The notes beneath the pieces were generated by a model. The model saw nothing but the letters and a program-made list of their open reading frames with translations. It searched no databases and was not told where the DNA came from. Shown piece by piece: positions 1 through 5,019 of a stretch of DNA of 5,019 nucleotides (position 1 is the stretch's first letter; each line of letters starts with the position of its first letter). Source of the stretch: a virus. Where the stretch lies: positions 1 to 5,019 of the IMG/VR virus record IMGVR_UViG_3300020030_000039, one strand, 5' to 3'. The position numbers and the translations under genes were made by a program.

Positions 1-90
1 TTACGCTGACTTATGATGATGCTCATTTGCCTGCTGATGGCTCACTTCATTACGAGCATTTTCAGCTGTTCATGAAGCGCATGCGTAAAT
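1..90. repeat. Terminal redundancy, copy 1. It is an exact 90-nt duplicate of 4930..5019 and marks closure of a circular 4929-nt genome.
   Basis: Base-by-base comparison shows 1..90 identical to 4930..5019. The VP4 reading frame continues across the join without interruption, because 4929 is divisible by 3. Confidence 0.95.
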
Positions 91-701
91 ACTTCATGAG
101 CCGTTTTGGTCAACAGCTTCGTTTTTTTATGTGCGGCGAATATGGCGACAAGCTTGGTCGTCCGCATTATCATGCGATTATCTTTGGCGTGACTTTTGTA
201 GATAAACAGCTCTGGTCGATTCGTCGAGGCAATAACTTATATCGTAGTCGTACGCTTGAGAAACTTTGGCCGTATGGTTTCAGTTCAATTGGCGCAGTCA
301 ATTTTGAGACTGCAGCTTATGTTGCTCGTTATGTTACGAAGAAGATTACAGGTCCTCTTAAGTTAGAGCATTACGATGGCAAGGTCGCAGAGTTTTGTCA
401 TTGCTCGCTTAAACCTGGCATTGGTCATGACTTTTGTGAAAAGTACATGACTGATATTTATACTAATGATCGTCTTATTCTTAGTGAGAAGATAATGATG
501 TCTCCTCCAGCTTATTTTGATAAGTTGCTTGAGCGTTCTGATATCATTCGCTATGAAGAGATTAAGCGATTGCGCGAGAAGCGCGGTCGTGATTTTGAGG
601 ATACTGGCGAGACTTCGCCTCAACGTCTTTTAGTTCGCGAACGCGTCCAAGAACTGAAGGCTGCTAAATTGAGACGCGTTATGGAAGAGAATCAATTATG
701 A
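1..701 (+). CDS. VP4: Replication initiator VP4, 3' part (5'-truncated by the window; first full codon at position 3). Stop is TGA at 699..701.
   Basis: The HUH motif HYH is at 165..173 (RPHYHAIIFG). The two-tyrosine catalytic motif YVARYVTKK starts at 318 and resembles phiX174 gpA motif III. Third-codon positions are strongly T-biased. Confidence 0.93.
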   Translation, partial: TLTYDDAHLPADGSLHYEHFQLFMKRMRKYFMSRFGQQLRFFMCGEYGDKLGRPHYHAIIFGVTFVDKQLWSIRRGNNLYRSRTLEKLWPYGFSSIGAVNFETAAYVARYVTKKITGPLKLEHYDGKVAEFCHCSLKPGIGHDFCEKYMTDIYTNDRLILSEKIMMSPPAYFDKLLERSDIIRYEEIKRLREKRGRDFEDTGETSPQRLLVRERVQELKAAKLRRVMEENQL

Positions 702-988
702 TCCTTAAAGTTTTTTCCGTTTTCGATTCGAAGCTTCAGGTGTTTAATACGCCCTTTTTTAGCCGTTCTGCAGCTGATGCTTCTCGGTCTTTTTCTGATC
801 TCGTTCGTGACAGTCGTACGACCGTAGGTCAGCATCCTGATGATTTTTTCTTGTATGAAATTGGTCAGTATTCTGATGAAACTGGAGAGCTTGTAGCTTC
901 TGTTCCGACACAGATTGCTGCTGCAACAGCTTTTGTATCTACGATTGAAGATCCCAAAGCGGCCGCGCCTGCTAAGTCCGAAGTCTAA
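698..988 (+). CDS. VP5: Gokushovirus VP5-like small non-structural protein, 96 aa. VP5 is proposed in the literature to act like phiX174 protein C in ssDNA synthesis or packaging.
   Basis: The N-terminus MILKVFSVFDSKLQVFNTPFF...HPDDFFLYEIGQYSDETGEL matches my recollection of the conserved VP5 pattern (M.kvFsV.D.K...F..PFF......HP.DF.L..IG). Its ATG forms an ATGA overlap with the VP4 stop (698..701). It occupies the canonical position directly after VP4. Confidence 0.8.
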   Translation: MILKVFSVFDSKLQVFNTPFFSRSAADASRSFSDLVRDSRTTVGQHPDDFFLYEIGQYSDETGELVASVPTQIAAATAFVSTIEDPKAAAPAKSEV

Positions 989-1004
989 GTACAGACGCGG
1001 CCGC
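959..1004 (+). repeat. Inverted repeat forming a 9-bp all-GC stem, GCGGCCGCG at 959..967 paired with CGCGGCCGC at 996..1004. The 28-nt loop contains the VP5 stop codon.
   Basis: The arms are perfectly complementary, and each contains the 8-bp palindrome GCGGCCGC. The loop holds AAGT three times (974, 981, 987) at 6-7 nt spacing. Confidence 0.85.
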
Positions 1005-1025
1005 AACACATAGATTCTTCTAATC

Positions 1026-1054
1026 AGTCCTTGCATAGTGTGAGGACTTTTTTT
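1026..1054 (+). terminator. Weak intrinsic-terminator-like hairpin between VP5 and VP3.
   Basis: Stem AGTCCT (1026..1031) pairs with AGGACT (1043..1048) around an 11-nt loop, followed by T6 (1049..1054). The stem is short, so this is probably leaky if it functions at all. Confidence 0.45.
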
Positions 1055-1067
1055 GTATGGAGCTTAT

Positions 1068-1499
1068 ATGAAGTTCAAAATTAATCACACAAATGCTACG
1101 GCTGAAGGTATTGTTTTTACAGATCCTTCAATGACCCAACAGCACTTTAAAGATGAAACGATGATTGATAACATTCTTCAGAAGTATGCTGAGACTGGTT
1201 TTTTGACTGATCCTTTTTCCCCGAAGCGTCCGATTCAGTTTGGCGACTTTTCTGACGTCACAGATTTTCAGACTGCTCAGAATTCTGTTGCTCGCGCTAC
1301 AGAGTACTTTGAAAGCTTGCCATCGCACATTCGTGCTTCTTTTAGTAACTCTCCCGCTGAATTTCTTCAGGCGCTTAATGATCCTGATCAGAGGAGTAAG
1401 CTCGAAGAGCTTGGTTTTGTTGCTCCTGAGCCTTCTGAAGAGCCTCAGCCCACTCCCGCGACTGAGGTTAAACCGTCTGATTCTGACAACAACGGGTAA
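1068..1499 (+). CDS. VP3: Internal scaffolding protein VP3 (Chlamydia-phage Chp2 scaffold family), 143 aa.
   Basis: GGAG at 1059..1062 lies 5 nt upstream of ATG 1068; the track's TTG at 1053 has no SD. The sequence SMTQQHFKDETMIDNILQKYAETG...QFGDFSDVTDFQTAQN...YFESLPSHIRASFSNSPAEFLQAL...LEELGF fits the conserved gokushovirus VP3 pattern. The C-terminus is acidic and proline-rich. Confidence 0.85.
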   Translation: MKFKINHTNATAEGIVFTDPSMTQQHFKDETMIDNILQKYAETGFLTDPFSPKRPIQFGDFSDVTDFQTAQNSVARATEYFESLPSHIRASFSNSPAEFLQALNDPDQRSKLEELGFVAPEPSEEPQPTPATEVKPSDSDNNG

Positions 1500-1516
1500 T
1501 TACTAATAACCAATAC

Positions 1517-1549
1517 AAGGGATGGTTTCCATCCCTTCAAAATCCCTTC
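1517..1549 (+). other. Hairpin with two alternative 3' arms.
   Basis: AAGGGATGG (1517..1525) pairs perfectly with CCATCCCTT (1529..1537), a 9-bp stem with a 3-nt loop. The 8-mer ATCCCTTC occurs twice (1531..1538 and 1542..1549), so AAGGGAT can pair with either copy. Confidence 0.7.
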
Positions 1550-1578
1550 GATCGCCCGCTTGCGGCGATCTTTTTTTT
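1550..1578 (+). terminator. Rho-independent terminator downstream of VP3.
   Basis: GC-rich stem GATCGCC (1550..1556) pairs with GGCGATC (1564..1570) around a 7-nt loop. It is followed immediately by T8 (1571..1578). Confidence 0.75.
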
Positions 1579-1597
1579 CAGATATCTCAGCGATTTG

Positions 1598-1674
1598 CGC
1601 ACGGGTACACACCGGAACCAGTTACTTACTTGATGTAACTGGTTCCGGTGACACCCCGATGTCCGCACGGGTAC
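1598..1674 (+). other. Perfect 16-bp hairpin flanked by 11-nt direct repeats. It is a candidate replication origin (Rep nick site) or complementary-strand priming signal.
   Basis: CACCGGAACCAGTTAC (1610..1625) pairs with GTAACTGGTTCCGGTG (1635..1650). The 9-nt loop TTACTTGAT (1626..1634) contains ACTTGAT. CGCACGGGTAC occurs at 1598..1608 and 1664..1674. GGG (1603..1605) can pair with CCC (1654..1656) to extend the stem across an internal loop. The structure is a sequence fact; the function is inferred. Confidence 0.8.
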
Positions 1675-1694
1675 CGTACGAAACTCTCGTATGT

Positions 1695-1722
1695 TTGATT
1701 TTTACTTGGCATGTGGTATATG
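1695..1722 (+). promoter_or_regulatory. Sigma70-like promoter candidate upstream of VP1.
   Basis: The -35 element is TTGATT (1695..1700). A 16-nt spacer follows. An extended -10 TG (1714..1715) precedes the -10 element TATATG (1717..1722). Each hexamer matches the consensus at 4 of 6 positions. Confidence 0.4.
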
Positions 1723-1774
1723 CTTCGTTGTACGGTGATAAAGCTTTTTGAGTCTTGGTTTTAGAGCCGTAAGG

Positions 1775-1820
1775 CGATCGGTTCGATGTGAGAGCTTTCG
1801 GAACTGGTCGTCTTTTTTTT
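1775..1820 (+). terminator. Terminator-like or attenuator-like hairpin with a T8 run, 24 nt upstream of the VP1 ATG.
   Basis: CGATCGGTTC (1775..1784) pairs with GAACTGGTCG (1801..1810), giving a 10-bp stem that includes two G-T wobbles, with a 16-nt loop. After TC comes T8 (1813..1820). Confidence 0.5.
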
Positions 1821-1843
1821 ATCTATAGCTATTGGATAAGTAC

Positions 1844-3508
1844 ATGTCATCTGTTAATCGTTCTACACAGCATCTTTTCTCACAGATTCCTTCAACTCAA
1901 ATTCCTCGATCTGTCTTTGATAGATCTCATGGATATAAGACAACTTTTAATTCTGGTTATCTTGTTCCTTTTTATGTCGACGAAGTACTTCCTGGCGATA
2001 GCTTTAAGTTGACAGCTACTTTGTTTGCTCGTCTGGCAACTCCGATTGTTCCTTTTATGGACAATTTGTACTTAGAGACTTTCTTCTTCTTTGTTCCCAA
2101 CCGCCTTGTTTGGGATAACTGGCAGAAGTTTAATGGTGAGCAGAAGAATCCAAATGATTCAACAGACTTTTTAATTCCTACGGTTTCCGGTACGAATGTT
2201 CAGAATCAAACGCTTTGGGATTACTTCGGTCTTCCGACGAATGTCAGTGATGCTTTGAAAGTAAATGCGCTTCCTTTCCGCGCTTACAATTTGATTTTCA
2301 ATGAGTGGTTTAGAGACGAGAATCTTCAAGAATCTTTGAAAGTTCCAACAAACGACGGTCCAGATAATCTTTCTGATTACAATCTTATTCGTCGTGGCAA
2401 GCGTCATGACTATTTCACGTCATGTTTGCCCTGGCCGCAAAAAGGACCTGGTGTCGAAATTTCGCTTGGTGGCACTGCTAAGGTCTCTGGCGACGTTAGT
2501 TTAGCTGCTCAGTACGGTTCTTATCATGTAGACAATGGCATTTCTGGCGTTAACAATTGGTCTAGCGCTTATCCTATTTCTTTCACTAATCCTGTTAGTT
2601 TAGGTAGTAAAGATCAGACTTGGGGACAAGTTTCTAAAACTGTTCCTTTAAGTATTACTGCAATGAATCCTTCAGATCCAGGAAGAGTTTCTTTTTACGC
2701 TGGTCGTGGTTTAGTTTTAGCTAACAATTTGTCTGCTGATTTGTCTGGTGCTACTCCGATTTCTATCAACGACTTGCGCCAAGCTTTCCAGATTCAAAAG
2801 CTCTATGAGCGCGATGCACGCGGAGGTACGCGATACACAGAAATCTTGCGGTCTCATTTTGGCGTAATCTCGCCTGACGCTCGTTTGCAACGTCCTGAAT
2901 ACCTTGGCGGTTCGTCTGCTCGTATTTCGATCAATCCTGTGCAACAGACGTCTTCTACGAATGAGACGACGCCCCAAGGCAATCTCGCGGCTTATGGTGT
3001 TGTCGCTGATAGTTTTCATGGTTTCTCGAAGTCTTTCGTTGAGCATGGCTATGTCTTTGGCTTTGTAAACGTTCGTGCCGATTTGACTTATCAACAAGGT
3101 TTGAATCGCATGTGGTCGCGTCAAGGACGCTTTGACTTTTACTGGCCTGTCCTTGCCCATCTTGGCGAACAAGCTGTTCTTAATAAAGAAATTTATGCTC
3201 AAGGTACTGCTGATGACGATAAGGTCTTTGGCTATCAAGAGCGTTATGCTGAGTATCGGTACTACCCCGGCCAGATTACAGGGAAATTCCGGTCAACTGA
3301 TCCTCAGCCGCTGGATAGCTGGCATTTAGCGCAGAAGTTTAGTTCTTTGCCGACTCTTTCAGCTCAGTTTATTGAAGACGATCCGCCTGTCGAGCGTGTA
3401 ATCGCTGTTCAGAATGAGCCGCAGTTTTTGTTTGATTCGTATATTCGTTTGAAGTGTGCTCGTCCGATGCCTGTTTATTCAGTTCCTGGACTTGTTGATC
3501 ATTTCTAA
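1844..3508 (+). CDS. VP1: Major capsid protein VP1 (Microviridae F-type jelly-roll capsid, gokushovirus form with a large insertion loop), 554 aa.
   Basis: The sequence contains hallmark gokushovirus VP1 strings: FSQIPSTQIPRSVFDRSHGYKTTFNSGYLVPFYVDEVLPGDSF, LPFRAYNLIFNEWFRD, INDLRQAFQIQKLYERDARGGTRYTEILRSHFGV and FGYQERYAEYRY. I prefer ATG 1844 (GGA 7 nt upstream) over the track's TTG at 1832. Stop is TAA at 3506..3508. Confidence 0.97.
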   Translation: MSSVNRSTQHLFSQIPSTQIPRSVFDRSHGYKTTFNSGYLVPFYVDEVLPGDSFKLTATLFARLATPIVPFMDNLYLETFFFFVPNRLVWDNWQKFNGEQKNPNDSTDFLIPTVSGTNVQNQTLWDYFGLPTNVSDALKVNALPFRAYNLIFNEWFRDENLQESLKVPTNDGPDNLSDYNLIRRGKRHDYFTSCLPWPQKGPGVEISLGGTAKVSGDVSLAAQYGSYHVDNGISGVNNWSSAYPISFTNPVSLGSKDQTWGQVSKTVPLSITAMNPSDPGRVSFYAGRGLVLANNLSADLSGATPISINDLRQAFQIQKLYERDARGGTRYTEILRSHFGVISPDARLQRPEYLGGSSARISINPVQQTSSTNETTPQGNLAAYGVVADSFHGFSKSFVEHGYVFGFVNVRADLTYQQGLNRMWSRQGRFDFYWPVLAHLGEQAVLNKEIYAQGTADDDKVFGYQERYAEYRYYPGQITGKFRSTDPQPLDSWHLAQKFSSLPTLSAQFIEDDPPVERVIAVQNEPQFLFDSYIRLKCARPMPVYSVPGLVDHF

Positions 3509-3517
3509 GGAGTTGTT

Positions 3518-3580
3518 ATGGCTTTAGTTATTTGGCTTGCTGTTGTTGGTACTGTTATTGTTTTTGCTTTAGGACAGTAA
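3518..3580 (+). CDS. Candidate micro-ORF encoding a 20-aa hydrophobic peptide, MALVIWLAVVGTVIVFALGQ. Function unknown.
   Basis: Consensus SD AAGGAG (3507..3512, overlapping the VP1 stop) lies 5 nt before ATG 3518. TAA at 3578..3580 ends 2 nt before the VP2 ATG. 13 of 19 codons after the ATG end in T, matching the phage's codon bias. The ORF is below the length cutoff of the supplied track. Confidence 0.45.
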   Translation: MALVIWLAVVGTVIVFALGQ

Positions 3581-3582
3581 TT

Positions 3583-4203
3583 ATGGGTTTCGGTTGGGCT
3601 GAAGCGATAGGCGGCGCTGCCAATTTTGGTAGTTCTGCTTTGTCTGCTTACTTTGGTTGGAAGCATCAGAAAGAAGTGATGCAAAATCGGCATCAGTGGG
3701 AAGTTGAAGATTTGAAAAAATCAGGTCTCAATCCGATTCTTTCCGCTGGCGGTCAAGGCGCTTCTGGTAATGCTCCTGTGATCGTTCCTCCTGACATCGC
3801 TGGCGCTATGGAAGCTGGTGCGCGTACTGATACGCAACATTCTGAGAAGAGTTTGAAAGATGCTTTGAAAGATCAAACTTACGTTCAGAATTCCGCTCTT
3901 CAAGCTGATGCAGGTTTGAAGCGTGCGCAGTCTGTAGCTGCTGATTCTTCTTCAAACTTGATGTGGTCGCAGACTAAAGGTCAAGAGATTGCTAATAAGA
4001 TTCAAGAAGAGAATTTGAAGCAAGCGAAATTCATGACACAGAATTCTGCTATTGCTTCTGAGAAGCAAAAAATGGTCTTTGATTATATGAAAGATCATAA
4101 AGGTGCTTGGTCTTTTGGCCAGTGGATGAATTTGATAAATCCGTTTAATTCGACGGCACCAGTGACGAATTCTGCTGTTGGTGCTGCTCATCTTGCGAAA
4201 TGA
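3583..4203 (+). CDS. VP2: Minor capsid / DNA pilot protein VP2, 206 aa.
   Basis: ATG 3583 has AGGA (3571..3574) upstream. The N-terminus is Gly/Ala-rich and is followed by MQNRHQWEVEDLKKSGLNPILSAGG, which fits the gokushovirus VP2 D-L-K-x-(A/S)-G-L-N-P motif. The C-terminal half is Q/K/A-rich and looks helical. It sits directly after VP1. The track's TTG 3532 extension (MACCCWYCYCFCF) is rejected. Confidence 0.85.
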   Translation: MGFGWAEAIGGAANFGSSALSAYFGWKHQKEVMQNRHQWEVEDLKKSGLNPILSAGGQGASGNAPVIVPPDIAGAMEAGARTDTQHSEKSLKDALKDQTYVQNSALQADAGLKRAQSVAADSSSNLMWSQTKGQEIANKIQEENLKQAKFMTQNSAIASEKQKMVFDYMKDHKGAWSFGQWMNLINPFNSTAPVTNSAVGAAHLAK

Positions 4204-4298
4204 TTGATGTCATTCTTAAGTTCGTTGATGTTTTGCTGAGGTCTGGCTCAGCAGTTTGGGAGGCCTTCAAGGCCGTTAAGAAACTTTTTAAAAAGTGA
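4200..4298 (+). CDS. Candidate small ORF encoding a 32-aa cationic amphipathic peptide, MIDVILKFVDVLLRSGSAVWEAFKAVKKLFKK. Function unknown.
   Basis: Its ATG forms an ATGA overlap with the VP2 stop (4200..4203). Its TGA (4296..4298) overlaps the GAGG SD of VP8. It fills an otherwise unexplained 102-nt gap. There is no SD of its own, and it is below the track cutoff. Confidence 0.35.
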   Translation: MIDVILKFVDVLLRSGSAVWEAFKAVKKLFKK

Positions 4299-4305
4299 GG
4301 TTTAT

Positions 4306-4428
4306 ATGTCTCGTCGTCGTCATAAGCTTTCTCGTAAGGCATCTAAGCGTATTTTTCGTAAAGGTGCATCACGCACGAAGACTTTGAATACTCGTGCTAC
4401 GCCGATGCGCGGTGGTTTTCGCATTTAA
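4306..4428 (+). CDS. VP8: VP8-like, highly basic DNA-binding or packaging peptide (functional analogue of phiX174 J), 40 aa.
   Basis: My translation is MSRRRHKLSRKASKRIFRKGASRTKTLNTRATPMRGGFRI, with 14 Arg/Lys in 40 aa. GAGG (4297..4300) lies 5 nt upstream of ATG 4306. Stop is TAA at 4426..4428. Size, charge and the GG(F/I)R C-terminus fit gokushovirus ORF8 proteins. Confidence 0.8.
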   Translation: MSRRRHKLSRKASKRIFRKGASRTKTLNTRATPMRGGFRI

Positions 4429-4503
4429 GCGTTAACCCTAATTATTTGCCGCGGTCGTCATAGTTATCATTTTGAGCATCTTAACTTCATTTGGAACCAC
4501 ACT

Positions 4504-4734
4504 ATGGCTACTGCGGCTTTTCGTCTTACGCTCAAAGATTTTGGCGTCTGTTGGCTCATTCCTGGAGAAGAGAGTTACGTTGGTCGTCGCAAGTTGGTGA
4601 CCTGGACGCTTTATCGTGATCGGCCTTGGGTTGCTTTAGCGTCATTTCAGGTTCGTTCTCGCTCTTCTCGTGAGACGATTCTTCGTGAGCTTCATATTGT
4701 GTGTCTTGAAAAATGCCTTGCTTTCACCCGATAA
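4504..4734 (+). CDS. Hypothetical 76-aa protein (orphan) that overlaps the VP4 start by 22 nt.
   Basis: ATG start. About half of its codons end in T by hand count, as in the bona fide genes. It lies on the coding strand and ends at TAA 4732..4734, inside VP4. I recognise no family. Only a weak GGAA lies 7 nt upstream. Confidence 0.5.
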   Translation: MATAAFRLTLKDFGVCWLIPGEESYVGRRKLVTWTLYRDRPWVALASFQVRSRSSRETILRELHIVCLEKCLAFTR

Positions 4735-5019
4735 CGGCTTATCGTCTTGCCGGTCAGAAGACTAAGGATGGACAACGCAATGCGATAACGTTTGATCCGT
4801 CTAAAGCTATTCCGTTTTCTGAGTTTAAGATTCCTTGCGGCCAGTGCATTGGTTGCAGACTTTCTAAATCTCGCGAATGGGCCGTTCGATGCGTAGTCGA
4901 AGCTAAGTCACATAAGAACAACATGTTTCTTACGCTGACTTATGATGATGCTCATTTGCCTGCTGATGGCTCACTTCATTACGAGCATTTTCAGCTGTTC
5001 ATGAAGCGCATGCGTAAAT
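4713..5019 (+). CDS. VP4: Replication initiator VP4 (HUH rolling-circle endonuclease, phiX174 gpA-like), 5' part. It continues at position 91 of the window; the full gene is 4713..4929 plus 1..701, 305 aa.
   Basis: ATG at 4713 is the first start after an in-frame TGA at 4707. My translation is MPCFHPITAYRLAGQKTKDGQRNAITFDPSKAIPFSEFKIPCGQCIGCRLSKSREWAVRCVVEAKSHKNNMFLTLTYDD.... It contains the CxxCxxC cluster and Rep motif I (FLTLTY) typical of gokushovirus VP4. The frame is open to the window end. Confidence 0.92.
   Translation, partial: MPCFHPITAYRLAGQKTKDGQRNAITFDPSKAIPFSEFKIPCGQCIGCRLSKSREWAVRCVVEAKSHKNNMFLTLTYDDAHLPADGSLHYEHFQLFMKRMRK
4930..5019. repeat. Terminal redundancy, copy 2 (identical to 1..90). 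This reflects assembly or linearisation of a circular genome, not a biological direct repeat.
   Basis: Same comparison as copy 1. The repeat lies inside the VP4 coding sequence (motif FLTLTYDD...KRMRK). Confidence 0.95.

Follow-up and report, generated by a model that had tools for sequence, protein, structure and literature searches.

A covarying hairpin that presents a phiX174-like nick core is a probable viral-strand replication origin of gokushoviruses

The 5,019-nt stretch of DNA analysed here (IMG/VR record IMGVR_UViG_3300020030_000039, positions 1 to 5,019; hereafter the window) comprises a complete gokushovirus genome, circular and 4929 nt long, whose first 90 positions (1-90) recur at 4930-5019. 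In its non-coding spacer between the VP3 and VP1 genes, positions 1605-1658 quite probably constitute the viral-strand (+) origin of rolling-circle replication, at which the HUH endonuclease VP4 would act. A hairpin at this site with a phiX174-like CTTG/AT motif had been put forward as a candidate VP4 origin from the sequence alone (the original prediction), and this proposal is strongly supported by the distribution of the element among relatives, the covariation of its stem, its invariant loop motif, and a second box at the spacing known from phiX174. Both this box, TGACACC (1649-1655), and the circular completeness of the genome were absent from the original prediction and were found here. 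The parts of the element are as follows.

1610..1625, + strand: 5' arm of the candidate origin hairpin, CACCGGAACCAGTTAC, one half of a perfect 16-bp inverted repeat
1626..1634, + strand: loop of the hairpin, TTACTTGAT, with the predicted VP4 nick core CTTG^AT
1635..1650, + strand: 3' arm of the hairpin, GTAACTGGTTCCGGTG
1649..1655, + strand: TGACACC box, overlapping the base of the stem and the sole copy of this sequence on either strand of the genome

The two 16-nt arms are 100% complementary and separated by 9 nt, and the hairpin is the longest perfect one in the genome, which bears out its earlier description as the strongest element of this kind; the runner-up, at 1517-1537, is 9 bp long, and no other exceeds that length. 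When folded as DNA, positions 1598-1674 reach -22.9 kcal/mol (z = -6.3), and none of 200 shuffled sequences folded as well. The sequence ACTTGAT lies in the loop (1626-1634), as had been reported; its two + strand copies are at 1628 and 3956, and the - strand has none. The chance that a given 7-mer falls in any of the three registers of a 9-nt loop is 1.8e-4, but this is a post hoc figure, and the decisive evidence for the element is comparative. A scan of the whole window against Rfam returned chance matches only, the best of which (mir-582, E = 0.25) fell on the hairpin because it is hairpin-shaped.

To examine the locus in relatives, we assembled 87 sequences (84 gokushovirus genomes), comprising the window, six GenBank relatives, and 80 IMG/VR genomes that were picked by VP1 similarity alone (57-93% amino-acid identity). 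The six GenBank genomes, which include Gokushovirus WZ-2015a and Human gut gokushovirus, derive from human samples and are 85-87% identical to the window. We used two approaches to detect the element. First, a scan for + strand hairpins with a stem of at least 7 bp and CTTG[AGT][TC] in the loop was positive in 74 of the 87 sequences, yielding 52 distinct hairpins, one of which (in L030) is a false positive inside VP1. Second, a covariance model built from 53 elements, with the window's own clade excluded, recovered the element in 9 of the 13 sequences missed by the scan. In total, 83 of the 87 sequences have a hairpin on the viral strand whose loop contains CTTGAT or a close variant. Applied to the window, the same model gave one significant match, at 1605-1658 on the + strand (52.3 bits, E = 2e-13); the next match was the same hairpin on the opposite strand (14.5 bits). 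When the IMG/VR genomes were scanned for perfect hairpins, the strongest one in many of them again had CTTGAT in its loop, on a different stem. The element was not found in the remaining contigs (L012, L021, L066, and L069), which have no terminal repeats and in which the spacer downstream of VP3 is absent or cut; a long perfect hairpin may be a recurrent break point in assembly. Beyond this sample, at least 120 IMG/VR contigs contain the exact pattern CTTGATGTAA-N10-TGACACC, and of 80 among the matches listed, 78 are 3.2-6.2 kb in length.

The position and strand of the element are also consistent. It is always non-coding and downstream of VP3, and the next gene is VP1 in 37 genomes, VP5/VP4 in 19, and the small basic protein in 15; this gene-order context rests on VP3, VP1, VP5, and VP8, as VP4 positions in the tabulation are unreliable. 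It always lies on the coding strand, which in the family Microviridae is the packaged strand. The classic isolates carry it as well, with the CTTG at position 2922 in Chp2, 2762 in Chp1, 3315 in phiMH2K, and 526 in SpV4; the Chp1 entry in GenBank has annotations for four other hairpins and not for the CTTGAT hairpin. Although no near-identical prophages were found in complete E. coli genomes, a more distant search of E. coli genomes yielded seven enterogokushovirus prophages, in which the element was found in the VP3-VP1 spacer.

This distribution bears directly on two other accounts of the hairpin. The first is that a chance hairpin coincides with a chance motif, or that the element is a XerCD dif-like attachment site as in enterogokushoviruses. 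In 4.9 kb, some 0.3 copies of a 7-mer such as ACTTGAT are indeed expected per strand, and some gokushoviruses integrate at dif, as described in PMC7062461. However, conservation and covariation over some 80 genomes exclude chance, and the best match to the E. coli dif sequence, the only dif sequence compared, is 17/28 in the window, equal to the shuffled null, while E. coli prophage controls reached 27/28 and 23/28. PMC7062461 places the enterogokushovirus dif motif between VP2 and VP5, near the VP4 N-terminus, and not in the VP3-VP1 spacer, and enterogokushovirus prophages carry the hairpin internally as well. We consider this account extremely improbable; distribution, covariation, and the dif comparison effectively refute it.

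The second is that the hairpin is the complementary (-) strand origin, which on the incoming single-stranded DNA (ssDNA) would be read by host primase, RNA polymerase, or PriA, as are the G4 and phiX174 intergenic signals. As a stable, non-coding structure of the packaged strand, the hairpin would suit this role, and PMC9865509 tentatively ties conserved intergenic hairpins of other microvirus groups to (-) strand synthesis. Yet a signal read by the host would be expected to differ among hosts, and the same element is found in phages of Chlamydia, Bdellovibrio, Spiroplasma, and E. coli; its presence in phages of such unrelated hosts favours a phage-encoded partner. Moreover, the loop contains the cleavage core of the phiX174 gene A protein, a second box stands at the spacing of the phiX174 (+) origin, and other hairpins in the same spacer (1517-1537, 1550-1578, and ~1775-1820) are available for priming. 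Thus, while (-) strand priming is possible as an added or dual role, it is much less likely as the main one, and as an explanation of the element we regard it as improbable.

We next consider the stem, for which the 16-bp structure was counted on an alignment of 62 distinct elements. Cells were paired in 73% of cases, compared to 59% after shuffling, and changes on both sides were seen in 14 of the 16 pairs. The covariation score was 0.365, compared to 0.148 +/- 0.011 in shuffled alignments, none of 500 of which reached the observed value, and it fell to 0.08-0.12 when partners were slid by one to three columns. The middle pairs interchange among G-C, C-G, and A-T, the lower stem covaries across genomes, and the four outermost pairs form in a minority of sequences. 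These double-sided changes, together with the excess of pairing and covariation above shuffled levels, indicate from aligned sequences that the structure of the stem is under selection. Among the 14 close relatives of the window, no other 41-nt stretch of the genome is as well conserved as the hairpin region (identity to the window 0.983, compared to 0.616 at third codon positions of VP1); four of them carry a compensatory exchange of C-G to A-T in the stem, and the first loop base may be T, G, or A, whereas ACTTGAT is unchanging. Relatives lacking a hairpin or a CTTGAT-like loop at this locus would have refuted the original prediction; the comparison made here came out in its favour, with a covarying stem and an invariant CTTG in the loop.

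A terminator, processing site, or stabiliser acting in the VP3-VP1 transcript would also be intergenic and on the coding strand, and terminator-like hairpins are over-represented in this genome (15, compared to 5.2 +/- 2.1 expected). We nonetheless consider an RNA-level role very unlikely. The covariation is nearly all Watson-Crick, with few G-U pairs, no Rfam family matches, and the loop agrees in sequence with a DNA cleavage site. Directly 3' of the stem is ACACCCCGAT, without a run of T, and the terminator scan skipped this hairpin yet called the hairpin with T8 at 1550-1578 just upstream; an intrinsic terminator is ruled out.

The loop and the sequence that follows it can be compared nearly base by base with phiX174, whose record gives the origin sequence CAACTTGATATTAATAACACTATAGACCAC and annotates rep_origin at 4306. 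CTTGAT at 1629-1634 (+) is identical to phiX174 4302-4307, and the 7-nt match to the cleavage core of the gene A protein on which the original prediction relied is genuine according to that record. In phiX174, cleavage occurs between G4305 and A4306 and is carried out by Tyr343 and Tyr347, and saturation mutagenesis found detrimental synonymous changes in codons Q107-D115 of protein A (bioRxiv 10.64898/2026.07.25.740675). By codon arithmetic these codons correspond to bases 4299-4325, the stretch from the core through GAC. By analogy, the nick in the window is predicted between G1632 and A1633.

Conservation around this position is of sequence as well as of structure. Across 61 distinct elements CTTG is invariant, with A at +4 in 50 and T at +5 in 59 (numbered from the C of CTTG), and conservation at +5 to +9 (T G T A A) ranges from 75 to 97%. 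The segment TACTTGATGTAA (-2 to +9), which spans the loop and the upper 3' arm, is kept as sequence: GT or GTAA of the 3' arm is retained even in genomes without pairing there, the upper part of the 5' arm (CAGTTAC) is conserved, and the loop consensus of the family is yTACTTGAT.

In the window, the TGACACC box occupies +20 to +26, beginning exactly 20 nt 3' of the C of CTTG, and its offset is constant across differing stem lengths. Of the same 61 elements, which were picked without reference to the box, 41 have GAC(A/G)(A/C)C at offset 21 and 9 have it at offset 22. The phiX174 origin has the same 21-nt interval between position 4302, the C of CTTG, and position 4323, the G of GACCAC, corresponding to CTTG^AT-N15-GACCAC, and the gokushovirus element aligns with the phiX174 origin at CTTGAT, T+7, A+9, T+11, GAC (+21 to +23), and C+26. 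We therefore propose, on the basis of this alignment, that TGACACC corresponds to GACCAC, the 3' 'key' end of the 30-nt phiX174 origin, and it may serve as the protein-binding ('key') part of the site.

The same genome encodes a cognate initiator of the Y-x3-Y HUH type, VP4, whose gene crosses the circular junction.

4713..5019, + strand: 5' part of the gene for the replication initiator VP4 (Pfam REP_ORF2-G2P), which spans the circular junction
1..701, + strand: 3' part of the VP4 gene, encoding the HUH motif RPHYHAIIF and the two-tyrosine motif YVARYVTKK

VP4 matches Pfam REP_ORF2-G2P with E = 3.7e-25 and Phage_GPA weakly, and by tblastn it is 98% identical to the annotated VP4 of MG945560. 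It is also similar to phiX174 protein A (blastp E = 4e-8), and both motifs have their counterparts there, RPHYHAIIF corresponding to RLHFHAVHF and YVARYVTKK to YVAKYVNKK, which contains Tyr343 and Tyr347. Three components of a phiX174-type origin are present, namely a Y-x3-Y HUH initiator, CTTG^AT on the viral strand, and a second box at a fixed distance.

Taken together, these features suggest how the element might work. The inverted repeat would extrude as a cruciform in the negatively supercoiled replicative form, or fold on displaced ssDNA, and either fold would expose the loop TTACTTGAT as a single strand. VP4 would recognise TACTTGATGTAA together with the TGACACC box at its fixed distance and cut between G1632 and A1633, with Y179 or Y183 becoming joined to the 5' end, and the 3'-OH left by the cut would prime the host polymerase. 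After one round, the regenerated hairpin would present the site again; the second tyrosine would then cut and the first would join the ends, releasing a circular viral strand.

A different view of the recognition sequences was part of the original prediction, which had noted 11-nt direct repeats on either side of the hairpin and likened them to iterons.

1598..1608, + strand: left copy of CGCACGGGTAC, a conserved flank specific to the clade and not general to the element
1664..1674, + strand: right copy of CGCACGGGTAC, in the variable segment 1657-1700

In this account the CGCACGGGTAC repeats bind Rep, as in origins of the geminivirus or circovirus type. The repeats do exist at both sites, extending to 16/18 matches over 1591-1608 and 1657-1674, and none of 200 flank shuffles reached a repeat of 11 nt. 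Furthermore, the left copy is 100% identical in the 14 close relatives, and the 7-nt CGGGTAC is common to both flanks in 10 of 13 distinct flank pairs from close relatives. Their behaviour, however, is not that of iterons. CGGGTAC is all that those ten pairs share, and the other three lack it. The left copy is absent in other clades, and at the right copy most relatives read CGTGCGGGTAC, within a two-allele segment whose mean identity over 1657-1700 is 0.74. Outside the clade, 54 of 56 distinct flank pairs share at most 7 nt, one shares 8 nt, and one (L031) shares an unrelated 10 nt, so that no excess of flank repeats was found in these 56 pairs. The second recognition element seen family-wide is TGACACC and not a repeat. 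The repeat is clade-specific, and we reject iterons as a general feature of the element and consider an iteron role for these repeats unlikely. The segment 1657-1700 itself occurs as two alternative alleles in close relatives (the window and L009 versus the rest), each forming a small hairpin of its own with a T-rich run after it, and looks like a swapped structural module directly 3' of the origin.

The copy of ACTTGAT in VP2 that had been raised as a caveat does exist, at 3956, but it is not conserved, as most relatives read AATTTGATG and others have unrelated sequence. It is a private coincidence of the window genome. We also rejected ACTTGAT(GT) at 3956-3964 as a secondary or alternative origin: it lacks conservation, a hairpin, and TGACACC at +20, and under the covariance model it scores 3.1 bits, compared to 52.3 bits for the hairpin.

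Several points weigh against reading 1605-1658 as the VP4 origin. The case for cleavage in gokushoviruses is comparative throughout. The origin of phiX174, the only experimentally defined relative, has no hairpin, and the role given to the stem is thus extrapolated from other HUH systems; on ssDNA the hairpin could have a further function or another one altogether. The match of the box to phiX174 is partial (GACACC versus GACCAC), and the box is degenerate in Chp2 (TGATAGC) and phiMH2K (TCACAGA). Finally, we found no description of the element in the open-access literature, a scope outside which the older papers on Chp1, Chp2, SpV4, and phiMH2K lie, and the available parts of PMC7062461, PMC9865509, PMC3394797, PMC3091885, and PMC9753089 do not describe it. 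The statement in the original prediction that gokushovirus origins are undefined agrees with this open-access literature, in which no description of such an origin was found, although an earlier mention is possible.

Given the base-level correspondence with phiX174, we also looked for the two boxes in five more-distant microviruses. In Tortoise microvirus 108, CTTGAC and TGACACC accompany a 14-bp hairpin (covariance model E ~1e-3). MG945433 shows no hairpin, and there TGACAC comes after CTTGAC within the same spacing class; in Rhizobium phage RHph_TM36, CTTGAC...CTGACAG lies immediately 5' of the Rep gene. In the other two, bajarodmic virus 222 and Dulem virus 224, no element was recognisable by simple criteria. 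The distant sites with CTTGAC and TGACAC(C) are located as follows, by our contig labels.

2342-2396 in L210: distant CTTGAC/TGACAC(C) site
~5985-6025 in L211: distant CTTGAC/TGACAC(C) site
~3237-3265 in L209: distant CTTGAC/TGACAC(C) site

This small comparison of sequences hints that the two-box arrangement is family-wide and the hairpin optional. We tentatively suggest, on a balance that falls just short of even, that the 54-nt module (a variable stem, TACTTG^ATGTAA, and TGACACC at +20) might be the ancestral (+) origin of Microviridae, homologous base for base with the 30-nt phiX174 origin. Gokushoviruses would then melt the nick site by hairpin extrusion, and phiX174 by an AT-rich spacer after its origin had moved into gene A. 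The distant microviruses with CTTGAC...TGACAC(C), with a hairpin or without one, point in the same direction.

The remaining features of the window genome are listed below; all of its genes are on the + strand.

698-988, + strand: VP5
1068-1499, + strand: VP3 scaffold
1500-1843: non-coding spacer of 344 nt between VP3 and VP1
1844-3508, + strand: VP1 capsid
3583-4203, + strand: VP2
4306-4428, + strand: small basic protein

Within the VP3-VP1 spacer we noted several further elements. Two conserved hairpins follow the VP3 stop at 1517-1578, namely AAGGGATGG-TTT-CCATCCCTT (1517-1537) and the intrinsic-terminator-like GATCGCC-cgcttgc-GGCGATC with T8 (1550-1578). A possible extended -10 promoter, TGgTATATG, is present at 1714-1722, and its motif is conserved in all relatives; the hairpin with T8 and this motif would place the origin between a likely terminator and a possible promoter. 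Just 5' of the VP1 start, at ~1775-1820, a hairpin GGCGATCGGTTC...GGAACTGGTCGTC is followed by T8; relatives carry the compensatory variants GGCGGTTAGGTC/GGACCTAGCCGCC and GGCGATTGA/TCAGTCGCC, and the version in the window needs three G-T wobbles, which suggests an RNA-level terminator or attenuator, or a (-) strand priming hairpin.

Elsewhere in the genome, a reading frame of 76 residues at 4504-4734 lies 5' of VP4 and overlaps its start, and has no Pfam match. Between the VP1 stop and the VP2 start, at 3514-3590, a ribosome-binding site (AGGAG) precedes a hydrophobic frame of 20 residues, MALVIWLAVVGTVIVFALGQ. Of 15 clade genomes, 13 retain this frame, with changes that are synonymous or conservative; L015 has lost it by deletion. 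Its product could be a small membrane peptide; we know of no lysis function established for gokushoviruses. Among the E. coli sequences, two dif-adjacent prophages (L092, 3905-3950, and L093, 3885-3927; NZ_CP127252 and NZ_CP059835) carry the internal element CCTGGCACAGT-gcccta-CTTGATGTAACTGTGCCAGGTGACACC, and L092 also has GGTGTCA, an inverted copy of the TGACACC box, ~45 nt downstream.

Gokushoviruses are among the most abundant ssDNA phages of gut, marine, and soil viromes, and a phiX174-type HUH origin presented in a hairpin would address the lack of a defined gokushovirus origin in the open-access literature, where just three papers speak of both gokushoviruses and hairpins. The origin is predicted to the nucleotide, and E. 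coli prophages share the element, which is relevant given that the EC6098 system was derived from such prophages. The element could provide a zero coordinate for rotating and annotating circular microvirus genomes and a marker of completeness, as several truncated contigs break in the spacer, and potentially a start for minimal replicons or sequence-specific HUH tags. If the module is indeed ancestral, it would form a mechanistic link between HUH origins of the phiX174 type and those of the stem-loop type (CRESS virus and plasmid) and offer a portable minimal origin for an abundant group of ssDNA phages.

Among known systems, the closest is the 30-nt phiX174 origin, CAACTTG^ATATTAATAACACTATAGACCAC, which is cut by the gene A protein. 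The two belong to the same family, with homologous two-tyrosine HUH initiators and a packaged coding strand, and share an identical CTTGAT, a GAC box exactly 21 nt after the C of CTTG, and the bases T+7, A+9, T+11, and C+26. They differ in that the phiX174 origin lies inside gene A while the gokushovirus element is intergenic, downstream of VP3, and in that the phiX174 spacer is AT-rich and free of any hairpin (no covariance-model match at E <= 1), whereas the gokushovirus spacer is the 3' arm of a covarying stem of 7-17 bp with the core in its loop.

Other comparisons are more limited. Rolling-circle plasmids of the pC194/pUB110 family have the nick consensus CTTG^ATA and an HUH-type Rep, and CTTGATG of the window matches this consensus in 6 of 7 positions, a comparison made at the core motif only; their Rep, however, has one catalytic tyrosine and a glutamate, and their origins have another architecture. 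The hairpins of reekeekee- and roodoodoo-microviruses, according to PMC9865509, are likewise conserved, non-coding, and marked by compensatory substitutions in small microviruses, but are tentatively tied to (-) strand synthesis, and no nick motif is given for them by the authors.

In origins of the CRESS-DNA viruses (geminiviruses, circoviruses, and nanoviruses), the nick site for an HUH Rep lies in the fixed loop of a covarying stem, and the predicted nick site of the gokushovirus element likewise lies in the loop of a conserved covarying hairpin. The loop sequence is different, as CRESS origins carry the nonanucleotide (T/N)A(G/A)TATT^AC (NANTATTAC), which is not found in the window element, whose loop reads TTACTTGAT and contains CTTGAT. 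CRESS Reps have a single tyrosine and are fused to a superfamily 3 (SF3) helicase, and CRESS origins have iterons adjacent to the stem, which are not supported for the window element; it has a single box at fixed spacing. The bipartite recognition logic of the phiX174 origin dates from work of the 1980s; it appears to extend across the family, here combined with the hairpin presentation typical of eukaryotic CRESS viruses.

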